A DNA stretch of 64,000 nt, taken from Oligoflexales bacterium. Its GTDB lineage: Bacteria; Bdellovibrionota_B; Oligoflexia; Oligoflexales; Oligoflexaceae. Below the pieces are notes generated by a model, which worked only from the letters and a program-made list of their open reading frames with translations, was not told where the DNA came from and ran no database searches. The stretch is from the NCBI GenBank assembly GCA_050251195.1, contig JBFWNG010000013.1:15331-79330 (forward strand). Reading direction: 5' to 3'. The translations under genes and the position numbers were made by a program. This document shows, piece by piece, positions 32,601-45,446 of the stretch; within the stretch, counting starts at the first letter, position 1; every line of letters begins with the position of its first letter.

Positions 32601-32739
32601 GCCTGAATGGGTGTCGCGGGTAAACTGGACGAACAACAGCGATTGGTTCTTTAACGAAAGTGAAAACGAAACCGGAAATAGTTTTATTCAATGGACAACA
32701 GAAGAAAGTCACGATGGAGCGGAAGATGATCAACAATAA
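29677..32739 (+). CDS. Large secreted TPR-like repeat protein
   Basis: Helical repeat composition with YbgF/BamD-like TPR segments (FTEAKTKFERFRAEF...ATYLLAHCYHEVAEHEKSIETLMVLVQKYPNTKF). The likely start is GTG at 29710, after AGGGAG. Confidence 0.7.
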   Translation: MLRRTVVGSWTVRWNDFKCVVLVVGACFVSNADVFAESLKPVIPLQERLDDRLYWELALRDPGVASSLISDDLYFEQLAGEINQLISETRQTKGVSKEDALKSIYEKFLLMTYFQEDVLMGRVVTGLQKTKIASSLSETRKNVVRYAKAHLEVTKNKSFQASARYHIATQSYLLGSKRDHWLKYLDETRNLNGALLRRSRFLVTAHNVLNKNDEKARTELARISASLTTEGTIAAQLVVARSFGGLNRNGKKAGKTSDKYRASLNAAVNKSRKLSEGEAEVILTNAITVWKRAEGKNQNWSKPPFALNGAKKSNQTLAILERSAIQDYADGNLGPAIKKYKALSKQVDDAALAYTMDQRVVSIHQAQFQKTKEPKGYETVLVEMVGKYNDLFVAKSIDESISGRAKQHFETKYKQFVNGFVVAALKSSASRKERMQAIKIAGRYKDSVSDQAEKDKVDLSIAKIFAVDGQHGEAVAILRDLIQRSQGPEVVTYTQLAIKSQSVVADWPETAPWAGVSTGNAQERTELVTFYEKLNEVNPSWASIAQMGLLKLNLGFKDEAFKLWTASLEKDSANKHAQQAAGYMMISYYDGKQWDELEKFADLNLKNNIKPMRLQKSLNPRTYLGHALFNGGKKHFEEKNFTEAKTKFERFRAEFASDSRMDEATYLLAHCYHEVAEHEKSIETLMVLVQKYPNTKFMRPALLNGGEWSIPMAYEEQAMFFLKRFVVQFPKDKVVENVKDTLIPLLAGRELYGDISRVQYERSESKSLDADARAKAAFELMKLEERFGDKSIAEKAAKKIVSNKNSSASARSQALIFEAKNLYMNNVAKLRQVEQEIASLDLTNADVMESLAEVRFILAQKSAYQVKEEVFNLGLKDPAAELSNQHKAFLASYNSFKKVCETGQNSFCVPALLKISEMTEQAVAVMEELTIPESLDAKSVAAFNTHKEQFLDELAQITQQADGQSVDSVAQGSTTPEWVSRVNWTNNSDWFFNESENETGNSFIQWTTEESHDGAEDDQQ

Positions 32740-33682
32740 ACAAACAAAACTAGCGGCGACTCTGGTGCTAGGTGCGTCCCTACTGACAGGTTGTACGCTC
32801 TTTGGCGGCAAGAACGCGAACGAAGTGGTCGTGGCAGGTTCAAAGCCACAGACGATTGTCCAACATGTTGGGCACGACAAGCCAGTTATTTCAAAGCTTG
32901 ATCGGGACAGCTGGGTGGAGATTCGCAAGTCTTCGGACAATGCAGTCAAGAAAATGTATGCGGCACTTGGCGCAAGAGAGTGGAACGTAGCGATCACAGA
33001 CGCTCGTGCTTATCTTGCAAAGAAGCCAAAAGACTTTGACGCCCTCACCGTGCTGGCCGTCGGTTTGGCCATGGATAAGCAGTTGTCGCTTGCGAGCTAC
33101 TATGCCAATCTAATCGAGAAGTTTTACGGCGACAATGCACACGTTAAGAATATTCGAGGTATCGCCGTTTATTACGCTCCGAACGTAACGATCCAAGATT
33201 ATCGCCAAGCCATGGAACTCTTCCGCCAAGCCTTTGATATGGACAGCAATCAAATTGCTGCCGGATTAAATCTTGGTCACGTTTATCTGAAGATGAACAA
33301 CTTCCAACAAGCCGCTGAGACCTTTCAAGCCACTGAGCAACGCTGCAATTGCGAACCAGCGCTTATTGGCTACGGCTTGGCAACGGCACGCCTTGGACAG
33401 TACAAAGAATCCAAACTGGCGTTCGAGAAGGTTTTAGACATTAACCCTGACAGCTCTTTGGCTCTTTACAGACTTGCTCTTATCGAGAAAGACGTTAATA
33501 AAGACTGGAGCAAAGCAAAACGCCATTTAGAGAAGCTTCTTGCCGCTCCTTCGGAGACGAACCTAGACATCAAACGCAGGGCAAATTTTCTTCTTCAAAG
33601 CATTGAGGCTCGAAAACTTGCTGACGACAATAACGAAGAAGATATAAAGCCAACGAAGACGACGTTGGAGTCGAACGAGTAA
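32726..33682 (+). CDS. TPR repeat lipoprotein
   Basis: Lipobox LLTGC and TPR motifs (LNLGHVYLKMNNFQQAAETFQ..., YRLALIEKD). I prefer ATG at 32726 (GGAG 6 nt upstream). The track start at 32660 overlaps the upstream gene by 80 nt. Confidence 0.75.
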   Translation: MINNKQTKLAATLVLGASLLTGCTLFGGKNANEVVVAGSKPQTIVQHVGHDKPVISKLDRDSWVEIRKSSDNAVKKMYAALGAREWNVAITDARAYLAKKPKDFDALTVLAVGLAMDKQLSLASYYANLIEKFYGDNAHVKNIRGIAVYYAPNVTIQDYRQAMELFRQAFDMDSNQIAAGLNLGHVYLKMNNFQQAAETFQATEQRCNCEPALIGYGLATARLGQYKESKLAFEKVLDINPDSSLALYRLALIEKDVNKDWSKAKRHLEKLLAAPSETNLDIKRRANFLLQSIEARKLADDNNEEDIKPTKTTLESNE

Positions 33683-33721
33683 TCGCAAAGAACGTCAATG
33701 GATTATTCTTCCGCGTTTCCA

Positions 33722-33832
33722 AACTTCCGCGCCTCCGCGATCAAAACGGTAAAAACCGGCCACGTGGGTAACGCTGATGGCTGGAGATATAGGTAACGAA
33801 TTATACCGCTTGAACGCGGAGGCGCGGAAGTT
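33722..33832. repeat. Long imperfect inverted repeat (family B core AACTTCCGCGCCTCCGCG), about 30-bp arms and about 46-nt loop
   Basis: 33722-33739 is the exact reverse complement of 33815-33832. The arms extend imperfectly to about 33754 and 33801. A single-arm copy lies at 48509-48551. Confidence 0.75.
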
Positions 33833-33866
33833 AGCGCCCTTTGCGGTTAAATATCTTTGCCATTTT

Positions 33867-33875
33867 TGCTATAGT
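33867..33875 (+). promoter_or_regulatory. Extended -10 promoter element TGCTATAGT upstream of the 33908 gene
   Basis: TGnTATAGT lies about 33 nt before the ATG and AGGAGG lies 7 nt before the ATG. There is no good -35 element. Confidence 0.4.
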
Positions 33876-33907
33876 AGTCAGATACTCTTTAGGACTAGGA
33901 GGCTACT

Positions 33908-34630
33908 ATGGCTCGACGGCTGACCATTGTTTTTTTGTTTTTCTTTTCACCTGTAGCCTTCGGCGGTGATTCCTCCCTAGTCAACCTGCTTTCCGCTTTT
34001 CTCTATAACCAGGTGAAAATATACGAATTCGTGGGTAAAAAGGATTCAGATTCCGCTAATTTTGTCCTTAATAGGGCAGTCGCTTTTAATCAATTCATGC
34101 AGCTCCCTAAGTTCCCGACGGGGTTCAAAAGGGACGTGAGAACGGACAAACGGGCTCCCGAAAGGTTTATGAAGAATCTTGTCGATCCTAAGGAACTTGC
34201 GTTTGTTCAAGAGACATACCTCCGCGCAAACCCCAAAGAATGTCAAGATAGTGATGGACTTGCGGCCATATCGCTTTTTGATAACCGTCAAGCTCGGCTC
34301 TCTTATATTGTTGACCCAAAAGAAAGGGTTAAGCTAGAATGCCTGGCTTTAGCGCCGTTCTTGCAAGACAAGAATTTCAAAGATCTTTCCCTTGCCGACA
34401 AAGTTCAGTTTTTGGCGGATTGGGAGAAGAAGGGCAGTATATCAAGTGAGGCGGCACAACTTGCGAAAGCAGCGCTTTTTGTAGCGCATCATAAGTTCTC
34501 GGCGGCACTGAACGGTCTCTTTGACCTTCAAACTAAAGACAGCAAATACGTTATTATGTACGACGTCACGCAGAGAGCCTATAGCTACATGGAACACGGA
34601 AAGGGCAATGTTGCCCTAAAAGGTTTGTAA
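33908..34630 (+). CDS. Hypothetical secreted protein
   Basis: Signal peptide (FFFSPVAFGG) and a strong RBS. No recognisable motif. Confidence 0.6.
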   Translation: MARRLTIVFLFFFSPVAFGGDSSLVNLLSAFLYNQVKIYEFVGKKDSDSANFVLNRAVAFNQFMQLPKFPTGFKRDVRTDKRAPERFMKNLVDPKELAFVQETYLRANPKECQDSDGLAAISLFDNRQARLSYIVDPKERVKLECLALAPFLQDKNFKDLSLADKVQFLADWEKKGSISSEAAQLAKAALFVAHHKFSAALNGLFDLQTKDSKYVIMYDVTQRAYSYMEHGKGNVALKGL

Positions 34631-34639
34631 GGAACATAG

Positions 34640-36502
34640 GTGAACAGAACAGATATTAGAGACGTTCTCAGGAATAAGATTCCACTTTTGTTTGATGGTG
34701 CGACAGGTACCGAGCTTTACAATAAGGGCATTTTCATCAACAAATGCTTTGAAGAAGCAAACCTCTACAACACGCATATGGTGGCGGAGCTTCATAACGA
34801 CTACGTTAAAGCCGGTGCGGAAGTTTTGGAGTCCAACACTTGGGGCGCAAACAGATTTAAGCTAGCTAAGCACAATCTTCAGGATAAAACCTACGAAATA
34901 AATAAGGCTGGCGCTTCGATAGCCCGTCAAGCGGCCGGCGCCGAAGCATACGTTGCCGGCTCCGTCGGTCCTCTTGGTGTGCGAATTGAACCGTGGGGAC
35001 CTACCTCGTTCGATGAAGCCATCCAGGCGTTTACCGAACAAATGCAAGGCCTGATTGACGGCGGAATCGATATCTTTAGTTTGCAAACGTTCTCGGATAT
35101 TTCCGAGCTTCAGCAGGCGATCAAGGCTGCTCGGAATGTGTCAAAGGACACACCGATTTTCGCGCAGGTTTCTATCAACCTTGACGGCAATCTGCCGTTA
35201 GGTACTCCGCTGAAATGGGCGATACAAAAGATGGACGAATGGGGCGTGGACGTTATCGGTCTCAATTGCTCCATCGGCCCGCAACCGATGTTTAGCCGAA
35301 TCGCGACAATAAAGGGGCTCACGACCAAGCCCATTGTTATGCAACCAAACGCTGGCTTGCCAAAGGAAGTGGAAGGTCGGACGATCTACATGTGTACTCC
35401 GGAATACATGGGAGAGTTTACGAAGAACTTTTTGCAAGAAGGCGTCCAGTTTGTCGGTGGTTGCTGCGGTACTTCGCCGGAACATGTGAAAGCAATGGCA
35501 AAAGCGTTTCGACACTATCGCTCGACAATGCATATCGAACAACCGCTCACGCGCATCTATGCGACGCCAACAGAGGAGAAGAAGCCGGATGTTGCGAAGG
35601 TGCCATTCCGGGAAAAGTCTATGTGGTCGCAAAAGATCGCAGACGGCGAGAGCGTGTTCTCAGTTGAGCTATTGCCTCCAGCGGGCGTCGATTTCACCGA
35701 TATTTTGGCGAAATCAAAGGCGCTGAAACAAGCTGGCGTTGATGCGATAAATATTCCCGACGGACCGCGCGCCGGCGCGCGCATGAGTGCCATTCTCACC
35801 TCGGTAATCATCGAACAGCAAGCTGGTATTGAAACCGTTCTTCACTACACCTGCCGCGATAGAAACTTGCTTGGCATGCAGTCCGATATGTTGGGTGCGC
35901 AAGCAATCGGTCTTCGCAATATGCTGTTAATAACAGGCGATCCGCCTAAAATGGGAAGTTATCCTGACGCTACGGGCGTCTTCGACATCGACGCCATTGG
36001 CCTCGTGAACATGGTTCGTCAGCTAAACTCAGGTGTTGATCTCGGTGGACGGCCGATAGGCAAGCCTACATCCATGTCTATTGGAGTCGGCGTCAATCCC
36101 GTTCATCAAAACTTCGAATATGAGATGAAGCGCTTTTGCTACAAAGTCGAGGCTGGCGCCGAATGGGCGATTACCCAGCCGGTATTCGATGTCGCAGCGC
36201 TCTACAAATTTATTGACTATATTGAAAAGCATAATGTTCGAATTCCGATTATTGCAGGCATATGGCCCCTCTTAAGCTTTCGCAACGCCCAGTTCATGAA
36301 CAACGAGGTACCCGGCGTCGTCATCCCTAAGGAGATAATGGCGCAAATGGCGGAGCCGCAAACACCGGAAGAAGCGCGACAGACAGGAGTTCGCATCGCC
36401 CGCAAAATGTCAGAGGAACTTAAGGGCGTTGTGCAAGGAATACAAGTCTCCGCGCCGTTCGGTAGGATCGACCTCGCGTTGCAAGTGGCGGGACGCAACT
36501 AA
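34640..36502 (+). CDS. yitJ: Bifunctional homocysteine S-methyltransferase / 5,10-methylenetetrahydrofolate reductase (YitJ-like)
   Basis: The N-terminal domain (FDGATGTELY, GLNCSIGP, GGCCGTSPEH) is the Hcy-binding methyltransferase domain. The C-terminal half (FSVELLPP...) is MetF-like. GTG start. Confidence 0.85.
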   Translation: MNRTDIRDVLRNKIPLLFDGATGTELYNKGIFINKCFEEANLYNTHMVAELHNDYVKAGAEVLESNTWGANRFKLAKHNLQDKTYEINKAGASIARQAAGAEAYVAGSVGPLGVRIEPWGPTSFDEAIQAFTEQMQGLIDGGIDIFSLQTFSDISELQQAIKAARNVSKDTPIFAQVSINLDGNLPLGTPLKWAIQKMDEWGVDVIGLNCSIGPQPMFSRIATIKGLTTKPIVMQPNAGLPKEVEGRTIYMCTPEYMGEFTKNFLQEGVQFVGGCCGTSPEHVKAMAKAFRHYRSTMHIEQPLTRIYATPTEEKKPDVAKVPFREKSMWSQKIADGESVFSVELLPPAGVDFTDILAKSKALKQAGVDAINIPDGPRAGARMSAILTSVIIEQQAGIETVLHYTCRDRNLLGMQSDMLGAQAIGLRNMLLITGDPPKMGSYPDATGVFDIDAIGLVNMVRQLNSGVDLGGRPIGKPTSMSIGVGVNPVHQNFEYEMKRFCYKVEAGAEWAITQPVFDVAALYKFIDYIEKHNVRIPIIAGIWPLLSFRNAQFMNNEVPGVVIPKEIMAQMAEPQTPEEARQTGVRIARKMSEELKGVVQGIQVSAPFGRIDLALQVAGRN

Positions 36503-36507
36503 AACCC

Positions 36508-37812
36508 GTGTTCGATCGGATTCAGGATTACATCACGACATACGGAGAACCTTCCTCCGAGAAAATCGCGCGCAGCGTCCCCTACGGGCAGTGGGACCAT
36601 GTCTTTGCTGTTCCTTCAATGGGAGAAAGTTCGCTTGCCACTCGATTCTTGGATTCGGTCGAGAGGGTAGCGCGAGCGAGCAAGCGACGCTTACTCGTTC
36701 TCTTCTTTATCAACGCGCGAGAAGGCACAGACAGGCATTTTCAAGATAACCAGGCAACTTTGGAAATTATTCGCGCCCGATACGGCAATGCTCGCCTCGT
36801 CTGCACCGACCCGCCAACCTATTTCGTATCAGGCGAAGGTGTGGATATTGTTGTTCCGTATTTCAATGAAGAGCCTCACCTGATTCCCTTTAAAGAGGGC
36901 ATTGGCCTCGTTCGAAAACTGATCAATGATACGGCGGCATGGTTGTGTTCGACGAATGTTGTCACGTCAGGTTGGATCCATAATACGGACGTGGACGTCG
37001 AGTTGCCGTCTGACTACCTTGGCATTTACGAGAGTCCTGGCGATTATTGTGCCATTATTCATCCCTATCGTCATCTGCCGGCAGGCGATCCAAATTCGGC
37101 GAAATGGCCAATCCTCCAAACTTATGAAATATGGCTGCGCTACTACTATTTAGGGCTAAAGCATGCAGGCTCCCCATACGCGATGCATACCCTTGGGAGT
37201 ACTATCTCTGTCAGCGCTGAGGCCTATGCAAAAGTTCGCGGTGTGCCGAAACGTCAAGCCGGAGAAGACTTTTATTGGCTTAACAAGTTGCGCAAAGTCG
37301 GAGAGATCCGTTACGAAAGGGATGTCGGTCCTTTGAATATCATTGAACGGGAGTCGACGCGCGTTCCCTTCGGAACAGGGGCTACTCTTGCTAAGACGCA
37401 TTCCATTTCTGAATTTCATTTTCTTGACCCCCGAAATTTCGATGTGTTGGAAACTCTGTTGCGATGCATGGATGACTTTCTCATGGGTGACGGGCAATTC
37501 AGTGTCAGTGATGTGTTGAGCGTTATGCCGATCGACGCGGAGTTAAAGTCTGTGCTTGGCAGCGTTTTCACGAAAATGGGCTTTGATGACGCCTGTAAAA
37601 GAATTTCTCGTTCCGCAGGCGATCGTATCCGTCGAAAAAACTTTGTTGATTGGTTCGACGCCTTTAAAACTCTCAAATTTGTTCATGCACTAAGAGACAA
37701 CGTTTTTCCTAATGTTTTCTACCGTGATGCATTGACTGCCGCCCGCTTCATATCTCTCGATGAAAATTGGTCGGATAAGCAAATTCTGACGCTTCTGCAA
37801 ACAATTTCATGA
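36508..37812 (+). CDS. Glycosyltransferase family 2-like (GT-A fold) protein, putative
   Basis: FAVPSMGES (cf. PxxNE), NTDVDVELPSDY (DXD-like) and RGVPKRQAGEDFYWLNKLRKVG (cf. GGF..GEDxD) lie in the order expected for GT2. The match is weak. Confidence 0.45.
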   Translation: MFDRIQDYITTYGEPSSEKIARSVPYGQWDHVFAVPSMGESSLATRFLDSVERVARASKRRLLVLFFINAREGTDRHFQDNQATLEIIRARYGNARLVCTDPPTYFVSGEGVDIVVPYFNEEPHLIPFKEGIGLVRKLINDTAAWLCSTNVVTSGWIHNTDVDVELPSDYLGIYESPGDYCAIIHPYRHLPAGDPNSAKWPILQTYEIWLRYYYLGLKHAGSPYAMHTLGSTISVSAEAYAKVRGVPKRQAGEDFYWLNKLRKVGEIRYERDVGPLNIIERESTRVPFGTGATLAKTHSISEFHFLDPRNFDVLETLLRCMDDFLMGDGQFSVSDVLSVMPIDAELKSVLGSVFTKMGFDDACKRISRSAGDRIRRKNFVDWFDAFKTLKFVHALRDNVFPNVFYRDALTAARFISLDENWSDKQILTLLQTIS

Positions 37813-37824
37813 TGTTTTCCTTGT

Positions 37825-39918
37825 TTGGTCTCTGACGATAGTTTCTCAAGGTTCTCGTTAAGATGCCGAAATTCCTATGAGGATAAACCAGAATTTAAAC
37901 GGCTTTGCATGAAGGCTTTTAAAACTCTTTTAAAACAGTGTCTCACCCTCAGGGCGACTCAGATCGATATTGTTCCCGATCAGTACGTCGTCGTGTCGGT
38001 GGACGGCAAAGCCAATCCTCTAAAGAACTTCGGCAAGCCCGACAAACAAGCCCTCAAAGAATTGATGCAGTCACTGTTCCCTAAAGATCGTGACAAGCTG
38101 AGATCTGGCCAACCCGTGAAGGGAATGCTGACCATTGTGAACGTCGGCAACGTATACATGGTGGGAGTGCCGCTTAAGTTGTCGGTTCACATCTTCCTGA
38201 GCGAAGCCGGAAAGCAACAAGCGGACATATTTATGAGTGCGCAAGGACGCGCGCCCACCAATTTGCCAACTGGCAAACCCAAAGCCCCTCCGTCAGGTAT
38301 GTCCAATGTCACTACAAAAAACCCGGAGCCAATGCGATTGACTGGTTTCGATAGTGACCAGGTAGATGAATCAATGGTTGATGCTTCGACCGACGGCAAC
38401 TACTTGATGGACGGAGCTTCGATTGCCAAAAAACCAATGCCGCTCGAGGCGAGACTTGACGCGCATGTTGAGCAATCCTCTTCGATGGTTGATGAACGCG
38501 TTGAAATTGCAAAGCCGAGGGATGTTGCATTAGACATGACGAGCGCGCCCTTTGAAATCGAGAGAAAAGGGACTAGCTCGGTTGTGGAACCGACGGCGCC
38601 CGCTACCTCCGAAATGCAATCGGGTAGTTCTCCTCTATATTCCCCTTCGGCGTCGGTTTCCGAGAGCATGGTTTCCGAGAATGTGATTTCCGAAAGAGTA
38701 GAAGGGGCGCATGTTCCGGAGAGCTCTGAAAGCTACGTTCTAGAAACAAAAGTGAAGGACATCAGTGCTGTGATGGCGATGTCCACGGCACCGGTCGAAA
38801 GCGATGTGACGGAACCGCCGGCGAGAATGGAATCGGTAGAATCCTCACATCCCGCAGATCCTACGCCTGACATGAGGCTGGTCGAAATAGTTGCTGAGGC
38901 GAGAGACAAAAGGGCTTCGTCAATTCATCTGCGTGGCAGTGACCCTGTGTTCTTACGAATCGACGGAACACTGCACAATAACTATGGCCAGGAAGTAAGC
39001 CGAGAAGACATTGACCGGATCGTTACAGGACTCGTTAAGGGGCATCGGTATGATCAGCTCTTGAGAAACGGCTGCACTGAGTTTTACGAATCAATGCCAG
39101 ACCTGGGTCGGTGCAATTTTAAGGTGTTTTTCGAAAGAGGCGAGCAAGCTCTCATCGTCACTCCAATTTATCAGGAAATTCCTTACCTAAGTGTATTCGG
39201 ACTGAGTGATTACTGGAATTCCGTATCAACGTCACCCGGGCTTGTCTTAGTACTTTCTGAAGATCAAATTTCCTTGCGCAAGGTGCTTGCATCGTTGGTC
39301 GAGAATATCAATGAGCACAGCGTTAAGCATATAGTAAGCTATGTTGAAGACGCATGCTTCGAGCATAAAACAAAAAATTCCATCATTAGTCATATGGAAA
39401 ATGGGTCAGCGCAACCTTGGGAAAAACAGGATGCAGACGTTGTCGTTGTTTCTCAAATATCTGGGAAGCATACGATCCGGAGAGCGTTCGAGATGGTCCA
39501 AAGAGGCGGGTTAGTCGTTGCTGGATGTACTGCAAAATCTATCACGGACGGCTTGCGGGCAATAAAAAACGTTATTGTTTGTGATGACCCGAGAACGTCC
39601 TACATGTTTACCAGTTCGTTGAACGCCATATTCTGTGTCAAAAGCATTACGTCGGTGGATAGAACTCTTTGCTACGCCCACGAAGCGCTCCTTATGAGCG
39701 AACCCGTTCGCAAGGAACTCGAGTTGAACCTTGCTTCCGACCTTAAAGACCTTCTAAGAACCATGGACGCCCGCGGCGCATCTCTGAACGAGAGCTTGCT
39801 CGTGTTGATGAAAGCCGGTTCCATCGGCCTTGATATCGCCCTAAGGGTCACCGATGACCAAGAAGATCTTATGACCCGGCTGCACGAGGCCGGAATGCTT
39901 GGACAAAGTAGCGCCTGA
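37825..39918 (+). CDS. PilT/PilU-like protein with degenerate ATPase motifs and a duplicated PilT-N-like domain
   Basis: The C-terminal half is colinear with PilT, but Walker A reads GLVLVLSEDQISLRK, Walker B reads DADVVVVSQISG and the His box reads GGLVVAGCTAKS. A second PilT-N-like domain lies at the N-terminus, separated by a roughly 240-aa S/E/P/V-rich linker. The start may instead be ATG at 37909. Confidence 0.6.
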   Translation: MVSDDSFSRFSLRCRNSYEDKPEFKRLCMKAFKTLLKQCLTLRATQIDIVPDQYVVVSVDGKANPLKNFGKPDKQALKELMQSLFPKDRDKLRSGQPVKGMLTIVNVGNVYMVGVPLKLSVHIFLSEAGKQQADIFMSAQGRAPTNLPTGKPKAPPSGMSNVTTKNPEPMRLTGFDSDQVDESMVDASTDGNYLMDGASIAKKPMPLEARLDAHVEQSSSMVDERVEIAKPRDVALDMTSAPFEIERKGTSSVVEPTAPATSEMQSGSSPLYSPSASVSESMVSENVISERVEGAHVPESSESYVLETKVKDISAVMAMSTAPVESDVTEPPARMESVESSHPADPTPDMRLVEIVAEARDKRASSIHLRGSDPVFLRIDGTLHNNYGQEVSREDIDRIVTGLVKGHRYDQLLRNGCTEFYESMPDLGRCNFKVFFERGEQALIVTPIYQEIPYLSVFGLSDYWNSVSTSPGLVLVLSEDQISLRKVLASLVENINEHSVKHIVSYVEDACFEHKTKNSIISHMENGSAQPWEKQDADVVVVSQISGKHTIRRAFEMVQRGGLVVAGCTAKSITDGLRAIKNVIVCDDPRTSYMFTSSLNAIFCVKSITSVDRTLCYAHEALLMSEPVRKELELNLASDLKDLLRTMDARGASLNESLLVLMKAGSIGLDIALRVTDDQEDLMTRLHEAGMLGQSSA

Positions 39919-39998: not shown

Positions 39999-40529
39999 AT
40001 GCTTCTAAAGTATATCCTCGTCCTCGGCATTGCTCTCGTTACTACCACTATCTCTTGTAAAAGAGAGACCGGAAATACGGTATCGTCGGGTGCTCCTCCT
40101 CCGCAAGAATCAGCCGCACCACCGCCACCTCCACCTTCGGCGGATACGACGACGACAACTAAACCACCCTGCGAAGACAAAGATAAAGATAAGGATGACG
40201 ACGACGACAAGGAATTGGTGAGCGGAGGCAAGACCACCATTGCTAGTTCTGGTTGTAGTTCTGCTTGCGAGACTTTTATTAAGGTTTGCAAGAAAAATCC
40301 AAAGGATACCCTAGCCTGTCAGGGATCGGATAACTGCAAGAAAACCTGCGGTGATGACGATGATGACAAGGACGACGATAAGGATGATGACAAGGACGAC
40401 GATAAGGGTGATGACGACGACGATGATGATGATAAAGATGACGACAAGGACGATGACGACGACAAAGATGACGACAAAGACGACGACAAAGACGACGACG
40501 ACGATAAGAAGGAAGAAGATTGCGTATAG
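39999..40529 (+). CDS. Lipoprotein with a Pro-rich spacer, a Cys-rich module and a poly(Asp-Lys) tail
   Basis: Lipobox TTISC, then PPPQESAAPPPPPPS, then seven Cys within about 45 aa (CSSACETFIKVCKK...CQGSDNCKKTC), then about 65 aa of D(3-8)K repeats ending in EEDCV. Confidence 0.7.
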   Translation: MLLKYILVLGIALVTTTISCKRETGNTVSSGAPPPQESAAPPPPPPSADTTTTTKPPCEDKDKDKDDDDDKELVSGGKTTIASSGCSSACETFIKVCKKNPKDTLACQGSDNCKKTCGDDDDDKDDDKDDDKDDDKGDDDDDDDDKDDDKDDDDDKDDDKDDDKDDDDDKKEEDCV

Positions 40530-40553: not shown

Positions 40554-40580
40554 AGAGCGGGTCAACCCGCTCTTTTTTTT
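40554..40580 (+). terminator. Rho-independent terminator
   Basis: AGAGCGGG-TCAA-CCCGCTCT followed by T8, 25 nt after the stop at 40529. Confidence 0.85.
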
Positions 40581-43187: not shown

Positions 43188-45446
43188 TTAGGTGTACAGG
43201 AACTCCAGCCCGCCGTTTTTCAGATCGAGGTAGCACTCGCCGCCTTCCTTCAATCTGCCAAAAAGAACTTCTTCCGCTAGCGGCTTTTTAATCTTGTCGT
43301 TTATCAAACGTTTGATGGGTCGTGCGCCGTATAGAGCGTCAAATCCCGTCTTCGCGATCCAGTTGAGCGCCGCATCGGAATACCTAAGCGCAACTTTTTT
43401 CTCAACGAGAGAAGCATTGAGTTCTTCAAGGAATTTGCGCGTAACCTGTTCGACGATCTTAATGTCGAGAGCATGGAAGGTGATTATTTCCGTCAAGCGA
43501 TTGCGAAATTCAGGCGAGAACATCGTTTTTACAGCCTTCGACAGACCCTTCGTATCTTCTTGGTGGTCCCGAGAAAAGCCGATCGCGGCTTGTGCGAGTT
43601 CTTGTGCCCCGGCGTTGGTTGTCATAATGATAACCACGTTACGAAAGTCGACATGCTTACCGTTGTTATCCGTCAAAGTGCCGTTGTCCATTACTTGAAG
43701 CAGAATATTCTGCATGTCGGGATGCGCTTTCTCGATTTCATCGAGGAGTAGAACGCAGTAAGGCTTTTTGCTCACTGCCTCGGTCAGCAAACCGCCTTGT
43801 TCGAAGCCAACGTAACCGGGAGGCGCTCCTATCAAGCGCGAAACGGCATGCTTCTCCATATACTCGCTCATATCAAATCGAAGGAGTTCGACGCCAAGAC
43901 TCAGAGCCAGTTGCCTTGCCGCTTCCGTCTTGCCGACGCCCGTGGGACCGGCGAAAAGGAAGCTGCCGATAGGGCCGCGGCTTTCGCCTAATCCTGACCG
44001 ATTGAGTTTTATAGCGGTAGCCAGCGCTTCGAGAGCTTGATCTTGCCCGAATACCTTGGACTTGAGATCGCCGTCCAGATGCTGAAGGGTTTCTCGGTCC
44101 GCCGTGGAGACTTTTTGCGGAGGAATGCGCGCCATTTTGGCGACTGTCGCTTGGATAGCGTCGATATCGATCGTCTTGCGCTTGGTTCCTTTGTTCTTCA
44201 GACTCGCTTTGGCGGCGGCCTCGTCGATCACGTCGATTGCTTTGTCAGGCAACATTTTGTCGGTGATGTACCGTGCCGAGAGCTTAACTGACTGGGTTAA
44301 CGCTTCCTTGGTGTATTTGACATTGTGAAAGTCCTCGTAGTACGACTTAACGCCTTCGACGATTTTTATCGCGTCGTCGATGGTCGGTTCGCTAACGTCG
44401 ATTTTCTGAAACCTTCTCGCTAACGCGTGGTCTTTTTCGAACCAATTTCGATATTCCTTGTAGGTCGTGGAACCTATACATCTAAGCTCCCCAGTCGCTA
44501 ACGCTGGTTTAAGCAGATTCGATGCGTCCAACGCACCGCTACCCACTGCTCCTGCGCCTACGAGAGTGTGGATTTCGTCGATGAACAGGATGCTGTTGGG
44601 AACCTTCTTGATTGACTTCAAAAGGTCCTTCAGCCGCTGTTCGAAATCGCCGCGGAACTTTGATCCCGCAACGAGCGAACCGAGGTCCAATGCATACACT
44701 TTTGCATTGTACAGCGCTCGCGGGACTTCCCGGTTGACTATCTTTACAGCAAGGCCTTCCGCAAGCGCGGTTTTTCCCACGCCCGCTTCGCCGACAAAGA
44801 TCGGATTGTTTTTACGTCGTCTTGCCAGAATCTCTATTGTTCTTTCAATCTCTTCGGTTCTGCCGACGATGGGATCGATTTGCCCTTTTTTGGCTTTGGC
44901 GCACAGGTCAACAGTGTACAGGTTGAGCGGGTCGCGTTGATCCGAAGTCCCTTCTTGCTCCTGTTGTTCTCCAGGGAGTTTGGGGTATCCTTCGTCCTTA
45001 ACAACTTCGATGTCGCTTCGAGGCATGCCGTGTGAAATGTAACGCATGAGCCCGAGTTTTTCTACCCGTTGCTTTTTAAGAAAGTAAACCGCATGTGAGT
45101 CTTTCTCGACAAAAATAGAGACAAGTAAGTGCGGGCCGTAGATCTTTTCCTTGCCGGCAGCATGGACTTGTTGAGCTGCCCTTTGGATGACCCTTTGAAA
45201 TCCTATAGTTGGTTTGGGCAGATGTCCCTCGAGCAGCTCCATGGTGCCCAATCTGGTTTGGAAGAACTCTTCCAGATCTTCCCGGATTTTGCGGATATCA
45301 GCTCCGCACTCTCTAAGCGCCTCGACTACGAATTTATCGTGTAGCAGCGCATACAAAATATGCTCAATAGTTACGTACTCGTGCTTCCGTCGGGTCGCCT
45401 CGTTTATGGCTAGATTTAGGCTAATTTCCAATTCTGGACTAATCAT
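43188..45446 (-). CDS. clpA: ATP-dependent Clp protease ATP-binding subunit ClpA
   Basis: Clp N-domain and two AAA+ modules (GEAGVGKTA, GPTGVGKTE). Located next to clpS. Confidence 0.95.
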   Translation of the reverse strand: MISPELEISLNLAINEATRRKHEYVTIEHILYALLHDKFVVEALRECGADIRKIREDLEEFFQTRLGTMELLEGHLPKPTIGFQRVIQRAAQQVHAAGKEKIYGPHLLVSIFVEKDSHAVYFLKKQRVEKLGLMRYISHGMPRSDIEVVKDEGYPKLPGEQQEQEGTSDQRDPLNLYTVDLCAKAKKGQIDPIVGRTEEIERTIEILARRRKNNPIFVGEAGVGKTALAEGLAVKIVNREVPRALYNAKVYALDLGSLVAGSKFRGDFEQRLKDLLKSIKKVPNSILFIDEIHTLVGAGAVGSGALDASNLLKPALATGELRCIGSTTYKEYRNWFEKDHALARRFQKIDVSEPTIDDAIKIVEGVKSYYEDFHNVKYTKEALTQSVKLSARYITDKMLPDKAIDVIDEAAAKASLKNKGTKRKTIDIDAIQATVAKMARIPPQKVSTADRETLQHLDGDLKSKVFGQDQALEALATAIKLNRSGLGESRGPIGSFLFAGPTGVGKTEAARQLALSLGVELLRFDMSEYMEKHAVSRLIGAPPGYVGFEQGGLLTEAVSKKPYCVLLLDEIEKAHPDMQNILLQVMDNGTLTDNNGKHVDFRNVVIIMTTNAGAQELAQAAIGFSRDHQEDTKGLSKAVKTMFSPEFRNRLTEIITFHALDIKIVEQVTRKFLEELNASLVEKKVALRYSDAALNWIAKTGFDALYGARPIKRLINDKIKKPLAEEVLFGRLKEGGECYLDLKNGGLEFLYT

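Follow-up and report, generated by a model that had tools for sequence, protein, structure and literature searches.

Loss of the nucleotide motifs from a long PilT orthologue of an Oligoflexales bacterium and its likely retention as a pseudo-ATPase

What becomes of a PilT-type motor once the motifs with which it handles ATP have gone? The question is raised by a gene on the plus strand of a 64,000-nt stretch (the window) of contig JBFWNG010000013.1 from the genome of an Oligoflexales bacterium (GCA_050251195.1). The gene lies at 37909..39918, stop codon included, and encodes a 669-aa protein which is colinear with PilT over its C-terminal part and in which every nucleotide motif of PilT is replaced. 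The answer that we favour, and hold to be reasonably probable, is that a long-PilT motor has here been turned into a retained, non-catalytic pseudo-ATPase that regulates the type IVa pilus machine or serves it as an adaptor.

Loss of the nucleotide motifs from a PilT fold

The NCBIfam model TIGR01420 (pilT_fam) matches over practically its whole length (model positions 2-343 of 343, aa 352-681 of a 697-aa reading of the frame, E = 7.8e-31), at a score of 107.5 bits, which is below the curated family cut-off of 319.1 bits. A phmmer search of the PDB returned an end-to-end alignment with Aquifex PilT (2ewv, E 1.2e-21) as well as alignments with other PilT and PilU structures. Homology to PilT/PilU and colinearity of the C-terminal part with PilT, as proposed in a first-pass annotation made by a model from the letters of the window, are thus borne out. 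No Pfam model, T2SSE included, matched the protein, even at E 10.

The register of the motifs was taken from the phmmer PDB alignment and confirmed on a PilT-HMM alignment of 179 domains, and in both the replacements of Walker A, Walker B/Glu and the His box noted by the annotation fall at the same positions. At Walker A (39247-39285, plus strand, site LVLSEDQISLRKV), where the family pattern is GxxGxGK[ST], the GPTGSGKST of PilT is replaced by LSEDQISLRK; at Walker B with its catalytic Glu (39430-39465, plus strand, DADVVVVSQISG), VGEMRD is replaced by VSQISG, within the longer stretch VVVVSQISG that stands in place of hhhhGExRD; and at the His box (39502-39537, plus strand, RGGLVVAGCTAK), GTLHTNT is replaced by AGCTAKS, the longer stretch being GGLVVAGCTA in place of GHLVxxTLHT. 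The Asp box, which the annotation had taken for a surviving similarity, proved to be degenerate as well: TIEDPIEY has become SYVEDACF (39337-39360, plus strand), with the acidic pair displaced by one residue, about eight residues are deleted after the box, and P0003, a homologue described below, has SQIDGASY at this place. The former P-loop is now acidic (SEDQ in the window protein, ADDRD in P0003). Since a scan of the whole length of the window protein found neither [AG]x4GK[ST] nor a relaxed P-loop, nor even GK[ST] by itself, a P-loop that is shifted but intact, which the annotation had named as a way in which its proposal could fail, is excluded. One can presume that the protein neither binds nor hydrolyses ATP.

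In an AlphaFold2 full-length model built on an 11-row alignment, the PilT core (aa 320-665) is predicted with a pLDDT of mostly 80-91, and of 88-91 around the former P-loop. Foldseek aligns the model over about 350 columns with Thermus PilT2, Geobacter PilT4, Pseudomonas PilU and Aquifex PilT (E 2e-24 to 1e-21), and the target TM scores to PilT2, PilT4 and PilU are 0.6-0.7, so that both domains of the PilT fold are recovered. The N-terminal domain of the core (aa 320-425, 38866..39183, plus strand, delimited by HMMER alignment and the model) has ASSIHLR in place of ASDLHL (38914-38934, plus strand) and GRCNFKVF in place of GRFRVN (39106-39129, plus strand), and it preserves RIDG (38950-38967, plus strand). 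The RecA-like C-terminal domain (aa 426-665, 39184..39903, plus strand) is the one from which all catalytic motifs have been lost. With its catalytic residues gone, its fold kept in the model and its homology to active enzymes, the protein is by prediction a pseudoenzyme, and the annotation's term pseudo-ATPase is upheld, given that all four nucleotide motifs are missing, that the full PilT fold is predicted with confidence and that the open reading frame (ORF) is intact in two lineages. Compared with PilT (TIGR01420; structures 2ewv, 3jvv, 5fl3 and 6ojx), it has the same two-domain fold, colinear along the whole length, and keeps the strands, the helices, the RIDG motif and the C-terminal helical region. 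It differs from PilT by lacking the four motifs and the residues after the Asp box, by its low score against the PilT model and by carrying two additions, a PilT-N-like domain and, between it and the core, a linker of about 200 aa predicted to be disordered.

These additions stand in front of the core, and their extent depends on where the gene begins. The uninterrupted ORF on the plus strand covers 37825..39918, which gives the 697-aa reading, and the annotation had begun the ORF at 37825, at an in-frame TTG. The database record of the window protein (P0002, 669 aa) begins at MKAFK, that is, at the ATG at 37909, P0003 begins with MKSFK and all relatives begin with M-[EK/D]-x-F-K. The TTG was rejected on account of these starts, and the gene almost certainly begins at ATG 37909 (MKAFKTLL...). 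Its G+C content is similar to that of the adjoining genes.

The extra N-terminal domain (aa 1-112, 37909..38244, plus strand) is predicted to adopt the fold of the PilT N-domain (N2-like, alpha-beta3-alpha2-beta3-alpha), and its alpha-beta3-alpha2-beta3 order recurs in the N-domain that belongs to the core. Its pLDDT is 80-91 in the full-length model, and modelled alone it reaches a pLDDT of 92.7 and a pTM of 0.84. The 50 best Foldseek matches in the PDB all come from N-domains of secretion-ATPase relatives, among them PilT, PilU, DotB and PilB; the PilT and PilU N-domains superpose over about 95-100 residues with a TM of 0.65-0.73 and an rmsd of 2.0-2.8 A, and hhalign aligns PilT residues 11-93 with the domain in register (probability 87%, E 3.8e-6). 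The second PilT-N-like domain recognised by the annotation at the N-terminus is confirmed. It was also considered whether it arose by a recent internal duplication of the core N-domain; this was rejected, the two N-domains giving a BLASTP E of only 0.47, though in register.

Between the two PilT-like parts lies an acidic linker (aa 115-317, 38251..38859, plus strand) with a pLDDT of about 32, predicted to be disordered. Its composition (S 16%, E 10%, V 10%, P 10%; net charge -18) is the S/E/P/V-rich one that the annotation described, but its length is about 200 aa instead of 240. Three islands in it, all on the plus strand, change little or not at all from P0002 to P0003: PEPMRLTGFDSD (38323-38358), PFEIERKG (38548-38571) and SYVLETKVKDIS (38731-38766), the residues common to both proteins being PEPM.LTGFDSD, FEIERKG and YVLETKVKDIS. 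A motif resembling G-x-F-x-[IS]-[SD] recurs in the linkers of related proteins with intact and with degenerate cores, linkers which cannot otherwise be aligned; it reads LTGFDSD in the window protein and GMFSISS, GAFSMAD, GGFRISD or SGNFSIS in relatives (alignment A2, columns ~165-180), and is a candidate linear binding motif. The C-terminal tail (DLMTRLHEAGMLGQSSA, 39865..39915, plus strand) is likewise nearly invariant between P0002 and P0003 (DLMTRLH.AG.LGQS.A).

The long PilT family and the position of the window gene in it

When P0002 was used as a query against 40 related genomes, many ORFs of 620-830 aa were found to match both its extra N-domain and its core. With P0002 alone as the query, the N-domains of these relatives are matched at E 1.5e-9 to 6.5e-8, and they align in register. 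The relatives share one layout, here called long PilT, in which an additional PilT-N-like domain is joined to a PilT-type ATPase through a disordered linker of about 150-350 aa. Intact members carry GPTGSGKST, IEDP[IV]EF, a Walker B of the type GE[ML]RD (e.g. IGEMRD) and GTLHTNT. The combination of extra N-domain, linker and PilT is the ancestral layout of a family of intact motors and is not peculiar to the window protein. The named loci belong to Oligoflexaceae and relatives (Oligoflexia, Bdellovibrionota) and include Pseudobacteriovorax metagenome-assembled genomes and Oligoflexus tunisiensis Shr3, which has an intact copy (L025:4001-6091). The family is apparently previously undescribed and widespread in Oligoflexia.

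Named loci were collected with a scan seeded by a 4-row N-domain alignment. An N-domain profile matches 72 of the 131 genomes of a phylum-level set, usually once per genome; most genomes with a long PilT have it once and possess a canonical short PilT as well. When the family alignment was used in a word-indexed search for homologues, the matches were dominated by ordinary ATPases. We fetched and read 65 ORFs with the N-domain and scored them against a canonical-PilT HMM built in the analysis. In about 54 of them the PilT core is intact (426-460 bits). Five others are wholly or partly dead (G000, the window genome, 148 bits; G007, 238; G032, 108; G046, 131; G047, 284, which keeps Walker A), and another five have the N-domain but no PilT core. 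Against TIGR01420, the intact orthologue of G001 passes with 446.4 bits, the half-degenerate copy of G007 scores 217 and the window protein 107.5. The suggestion that long PilT might be PilU was discarded, the intact core being much closer to Pseudomonas aeruginosa PilT (384 bits) than to PilU (252).

Genes with the N-domain alone or otherwise fused were seen at L088 (G032:C33), L089 and L037 (G046:C3:480000-483500), L051 (G055), L071 (G043, 939 aa) and L077 (G029, 808 aa). The domain may stand alone with a linker (~330-420 aa) or be joined to a long unrelated C-terminus. In G046, one of the genes for the N-domain alone has as its neighbour, on the opposite strand, a separate PilT-like gene that is intact.

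The window protein has the three-part layout, the homologous N-domain, the G-x-F linker motif, the tail (aligned with K[DE]AF..L.Q.KGI... of intact members) and the genomic position of the Oligoflexia long PilTs. It is unlike the intact members, which keep every motif and are 71-77% identical to one another in the core, in that its own core is only ~20% and its N-domain 22-29% identical to theirs.

Upstream of the window gene, all on the plus strand, lie genes for a TPR protein (32660-33682), a 240-aa protein to which the Pfam scan assigned no family (33908-34630), a yitJ-like homocysteine S-methyltransferase/MTHFR fusion (34640-36502) and, directly before the long PilT gene, a 434-aa protein (hyp434, 36508-37812); downstream come a gene for an Asp/Lys-rich lipoprotein (39999-40529) and, on the minus strand, clpA (43188..45446). 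By tblastn, the genes for the TPR protein (TPR340), the yitJ-like enzyme, in some loci hyp434, and long PilT are colinear in nine Oligoflexus and Pseudobacteriovorax loci. The TPR and yitJ-like genes precede an intact long PilT in eight Oligoflexus loci, and in Pseudobacteriovorax hyp434 lies between the yitJ-like gene and long PilT, as in the window. Likewise, in G007, G001, G002 and G008 a clpA gene of opposite orientation follows long PilT at a distance of 5-7 kb, just as in the window. Since this neighbourhood is colinear and the window genome (94% complete) has a single N-domain and no second long PilT, the window gene is the positional orthologue of an intact long-PilT motor rather than an additional paralogue. 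A tree of the core domain leaves the window protein unplaced: the stem of its lineage measures 6.9 substitutions per site and its tips 1.7, against 0.1-0.4 within the intact clade, and long-branch attraction is to be expected. It is because of these long-branch effects that orthology is drawn from synteny, layout and the N-domain.

Some further features of the locus may be recorded here. Across Oligoflexus the yitJ-like gene is found directly upstream of long PilT. The proteins of 240, 434 and 424 aa near the locus gave no significant family or PDB matches, the best family hint for hyp434 being a faint glycosyltransferase-like one (E 0.21). The upstream genes (32660..37812, plus strand) are separated by gaps of 5-96 nt, and a terminator scan found no terminator-like site before 40554. 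The first such site downstream of 33908 is a strong, bidirectional hairpin at 40554-40573, just past the lipoprotein gene; it has a T-run and a stem of 8 pairs, 6 being G-C, and its position is consistent with one transcription unit.

Evidence for retention and the recurrence of degeneration

Whether the gene is maintained or is merely decaying can be judged from its sole close relative. An exhaustive HMMER search over 1.84 billion representative proteins found one, P0003, a 728-aa protein encoded on a 4,013-bp contig of JGI metagenome 3300071358 (E 1.6e-181), followed by intact long PilTs at about 1e-24. A search of metagenome contigs and genome contigs with the P0002/P0003 alignment retrieved no related loci. 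P0003 has an open frame and is also dead, with TADDRDGLRK at Walker A, SQIDGASY at the Asp box, LYGVMD at Walker B and AGIVAR at the His box. The window protein and P0003 are 88% identical in the extra N-domain, 42% in the linker and 46% in the core. In intact pairs from different genera, the corresponding values are 46-59%, about 30% and 71-77%, so that the pattern of the dead pair is the reverse of that of the intact family.

In a tree of the N-domains a long stem (1.64) leads to the dead pair, whose tips are very short (0.05-0.12), and as reconstructed this shows a burst of change followed by very strong constraint on the extra domain. Comparison of the two proteins shows that constraint has shifted away from the PilT core and now lies on the extra N-domain, on the islands of the linker and on the tail, and since the extra N-domain is under the strongest constraint, it may well be the working part. 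Because both frames are full-length at such divergence, and given the identity pattern, neutral decay fits poorly; what is strongly indicated is a pseudo-ATPase retained under selection and not a decaying pseudogene. The decaying pseudogene was the other way in which the first-pass annotation thought that it could be wrong, and at the level of sequence it was not found: frames are full-length in two lineages, with cores 46% identical.

The window protein is also not alone in its degeneration. The genome nearest to that of the window by ClpA identity, G007 (66%, vs 61-63% for the rest), has a half-degenerate syntenic orthologue (L033:4365-6419, G007:C11, plus strand), in which Walker A is GPSNSGRST, with Lys changed to Arg, the Asp box TLEQPVEY, Walker B VSDINH and the His box FAGFTAN. 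It looks like an intermediate stage in the loss of the motor. ASDLHL is changed to WWECFGL in this copy. Of the pair hyp434 and yitJ-like gene, hyp434 alone is found upstream of it; the four genes directly upstream that were read in the 4.3-kb flank do not include the yitJ-like gene. In G006, a genome of the same family (genus g7, 96% complete), neither the N-domain nor a long PilT was matched, so that one genus of the family would seem to have lost the gene altogether.

Degenerate long copies occur in another family, f12, as well, in G032 (L034, G032:C21) and G046 (L081, G046:C3:178600-180920); they are VGTDCEKRSKIL and AGTSEDLLSKIL. Their acidic P-loop replacements are alike (GTDCEKRSKIL and GTSEDLLSKIL), and their C-terminal domains are shortened. 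In the N-domain tree these dead copies group with an intact f12 copy and not with the window protein, with moderate support (85). A single origin of all dead copies was rejected on this account, and the grouping points to an independent origin of those in f12. Six PilT-like proteins of the representative library (P0088, P0081, P0046, P0080, P0070 and P0079) have Walker A, Walker B and His boxes that are partly or wholly degenerate, e.g. LVTCCSERVRSMT and LVTGIDHHQTQAA, and show no obvious kinship with the window clade; loss of catalysis in PilT-like proteins may be commoner than the literature suggests.

Possible function, competing explanations and significance

The window genome has the genes of a type IVa pilus: pilB-pilT-pilC, pilM and a PilQ-like secretin. 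One canonical short PilT gene adjoins pilB and pilC, and the remaining ATPases are only of the GspE/PilB type. In such a setting, the protein probably now plays a non-motor role, as regulator or scaffold. A lineage-specific long-PilT retraction motor would have lost Walker A, the Asp box, Walker B/Glu and the His box while keeping the two-domain PilT fold, the extra N-domain, the short linker motifs and the C-terminal tail. The retained fold could then form or join a ring, or dock at the site of the PilT ring (at PilC/PilM or at canonical PilT), with the tethered N-domain and the linker motifs binding a partner. A more specific version, which we offer as a possibility rather than as an expectation, is that the dead PilT controls type IV pilus retraction, by occupying the docking site of the motor or stacking on the canonical PilT ring while its tethered decoy N-domain and linker motifs hold a partner, and that conversion from motor to regulator happened more than once in the long PilT family. 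The roles put forward by the annotation, in which the protein poisons or modulates a PilT/PilB hexamer or senses a ligand, are speculative.

Several observations weigh against a retained pilus regulator. The core has evolved very fast, as its 46% identity to P0003 attests, and constraint on it may be weak; G006 has no copy at all, so a long PilT gene can be lost; and the gene neighbours, a methionine-cycle enzyme and proteins without assigned families, have no link to pili, so that it is homology which ties the intact family to the pilus. One could ask whether the protein has been repurposed outside pili, the N-domain and linker being a binding hub for an unrelated process, perhaps one tied to the co-oriented yitJ-like, hyp434 and lipoprotein genes, and the dead core only an oligomerisation module. 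The conserved adjacency to the yitJ-like gene and hyp434, the tight spacing, the strong terminator that comes only past the lipoprotein gene, and the absence of any pilus gene near the locus in the Pfam scan would all agree with this. So would the N-domains that stand alone or on non-PilT C-termini in G043, G029, G055, G032 and G046, since their occurrence apart from a PilT core means that the domain can function independently of the motor. However, the intact orthologues are bona fide PilT-type motors by their 384 bits to P. aeruginosa PilT, adjacency to yitJ is common to these motors and is thus uninformative on the dead form, and in G007 the yitJ-like gene is missing from the four genes directly upstream. 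We consider a role outside the pilus unlikely.

It could also be that the pocket has been remodelled to bind a non-ATP nucleotide, a second messenger or a metabolite, with PilT-like domain closure as the signal. The strands and helices of the pocket are kept (pLDDT 88-91 at the former P-loop), and the P-loop replacements of P0002, P0003, G032 and G046 resemble one another, following [ST]-[ED]-D...[RK]-K-[ILV]-L. Nevertheless, such a ligand sensor seems to us distinctly improbable: SEDQISLRK and ADDRDGLRK in close homologues do not look like one precisely shaped site, acidic residues at the P-loop would repel phosphates, and family-model scans found no known ligand-binding motifs. Still less can be said for a non-functional relic, a gene decaying but as yet uninterrupted. 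The extreme acceleration of the core and the absence of the gene from G006 are what one would expect of it, but frames of 669 and 728 aa have stayed full-length despite the divergence of core and linker, the N-domain is 88% identical and the linker islands and tail are invariant, the fold is still predicted with confidence and the G+C content is like that of the adjoining genes; we regard this explanation as very improbable.

Returning to a pseudo-ATPase acting on the pilus, a precedent exists for a PilT that is useful without hydrolysis. PilT with mutated Walker motifs, studied in Vibrio cholerae and Acinetobacter baylyi, continues to support retraction by linking PilU to the pilus machine (Chlebek et al. 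2019, PMC6821130; Teipen et al., bioRxiv 10.1101/2025.10.30.685630). These Walker A/B mutants resemble the window protein in being ATPase-dead PilTs, and they still serve as a structural bridge to PilU. They are, however, point mutants made in the laboratory which are otherwise native and still bind the machine, whereas the loss in the window protein is natural, complete and ancient; moreover, a PilU-type partner was not found in the window genome among its one canonical PilT and its GspE/PilB-type ATPases. Myxococcus xanthus offers another comparison, with several PilT-type paralogues per genome, some of which have disordered extensions, such as the long disordered N-terminus of MXAN_6705, but all five paralogues keep the Walker A, Walker B, Asp and His boxes, and an extra folded N-domain is not reported there (PMC13584747). 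Our literature search found no natural catalytically dead PilT and nothing relevant on PilT in Oligoflexus. The PilT fold and ancestry are familiar; what appears to be new is a natural pseudo-ATPase that descends from a long-PilT family not described before.

PilT motors rank among the strongest molecular machines known, the cooperation of two PilT-type rings is under active study, and pseudoenzymes as such are no rarity. If selection has indeed kept a dead PilT, this would be a natural parallel to the bridge formed by Walker-mutant PilT (PMC6821130). The long PilTs form a graded set, from the intact copies of most genera through the half-dead one of G007 to the fully dead ones of the window genome and P0003, with independent dead copies in f12. 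Such a set lets one examine which parts of a PilT ring are of importance when hydrolysis is left aside, and since Oligoflexia include the cultured Oligoflexus tunisiensis, the long PilT family is open to study.

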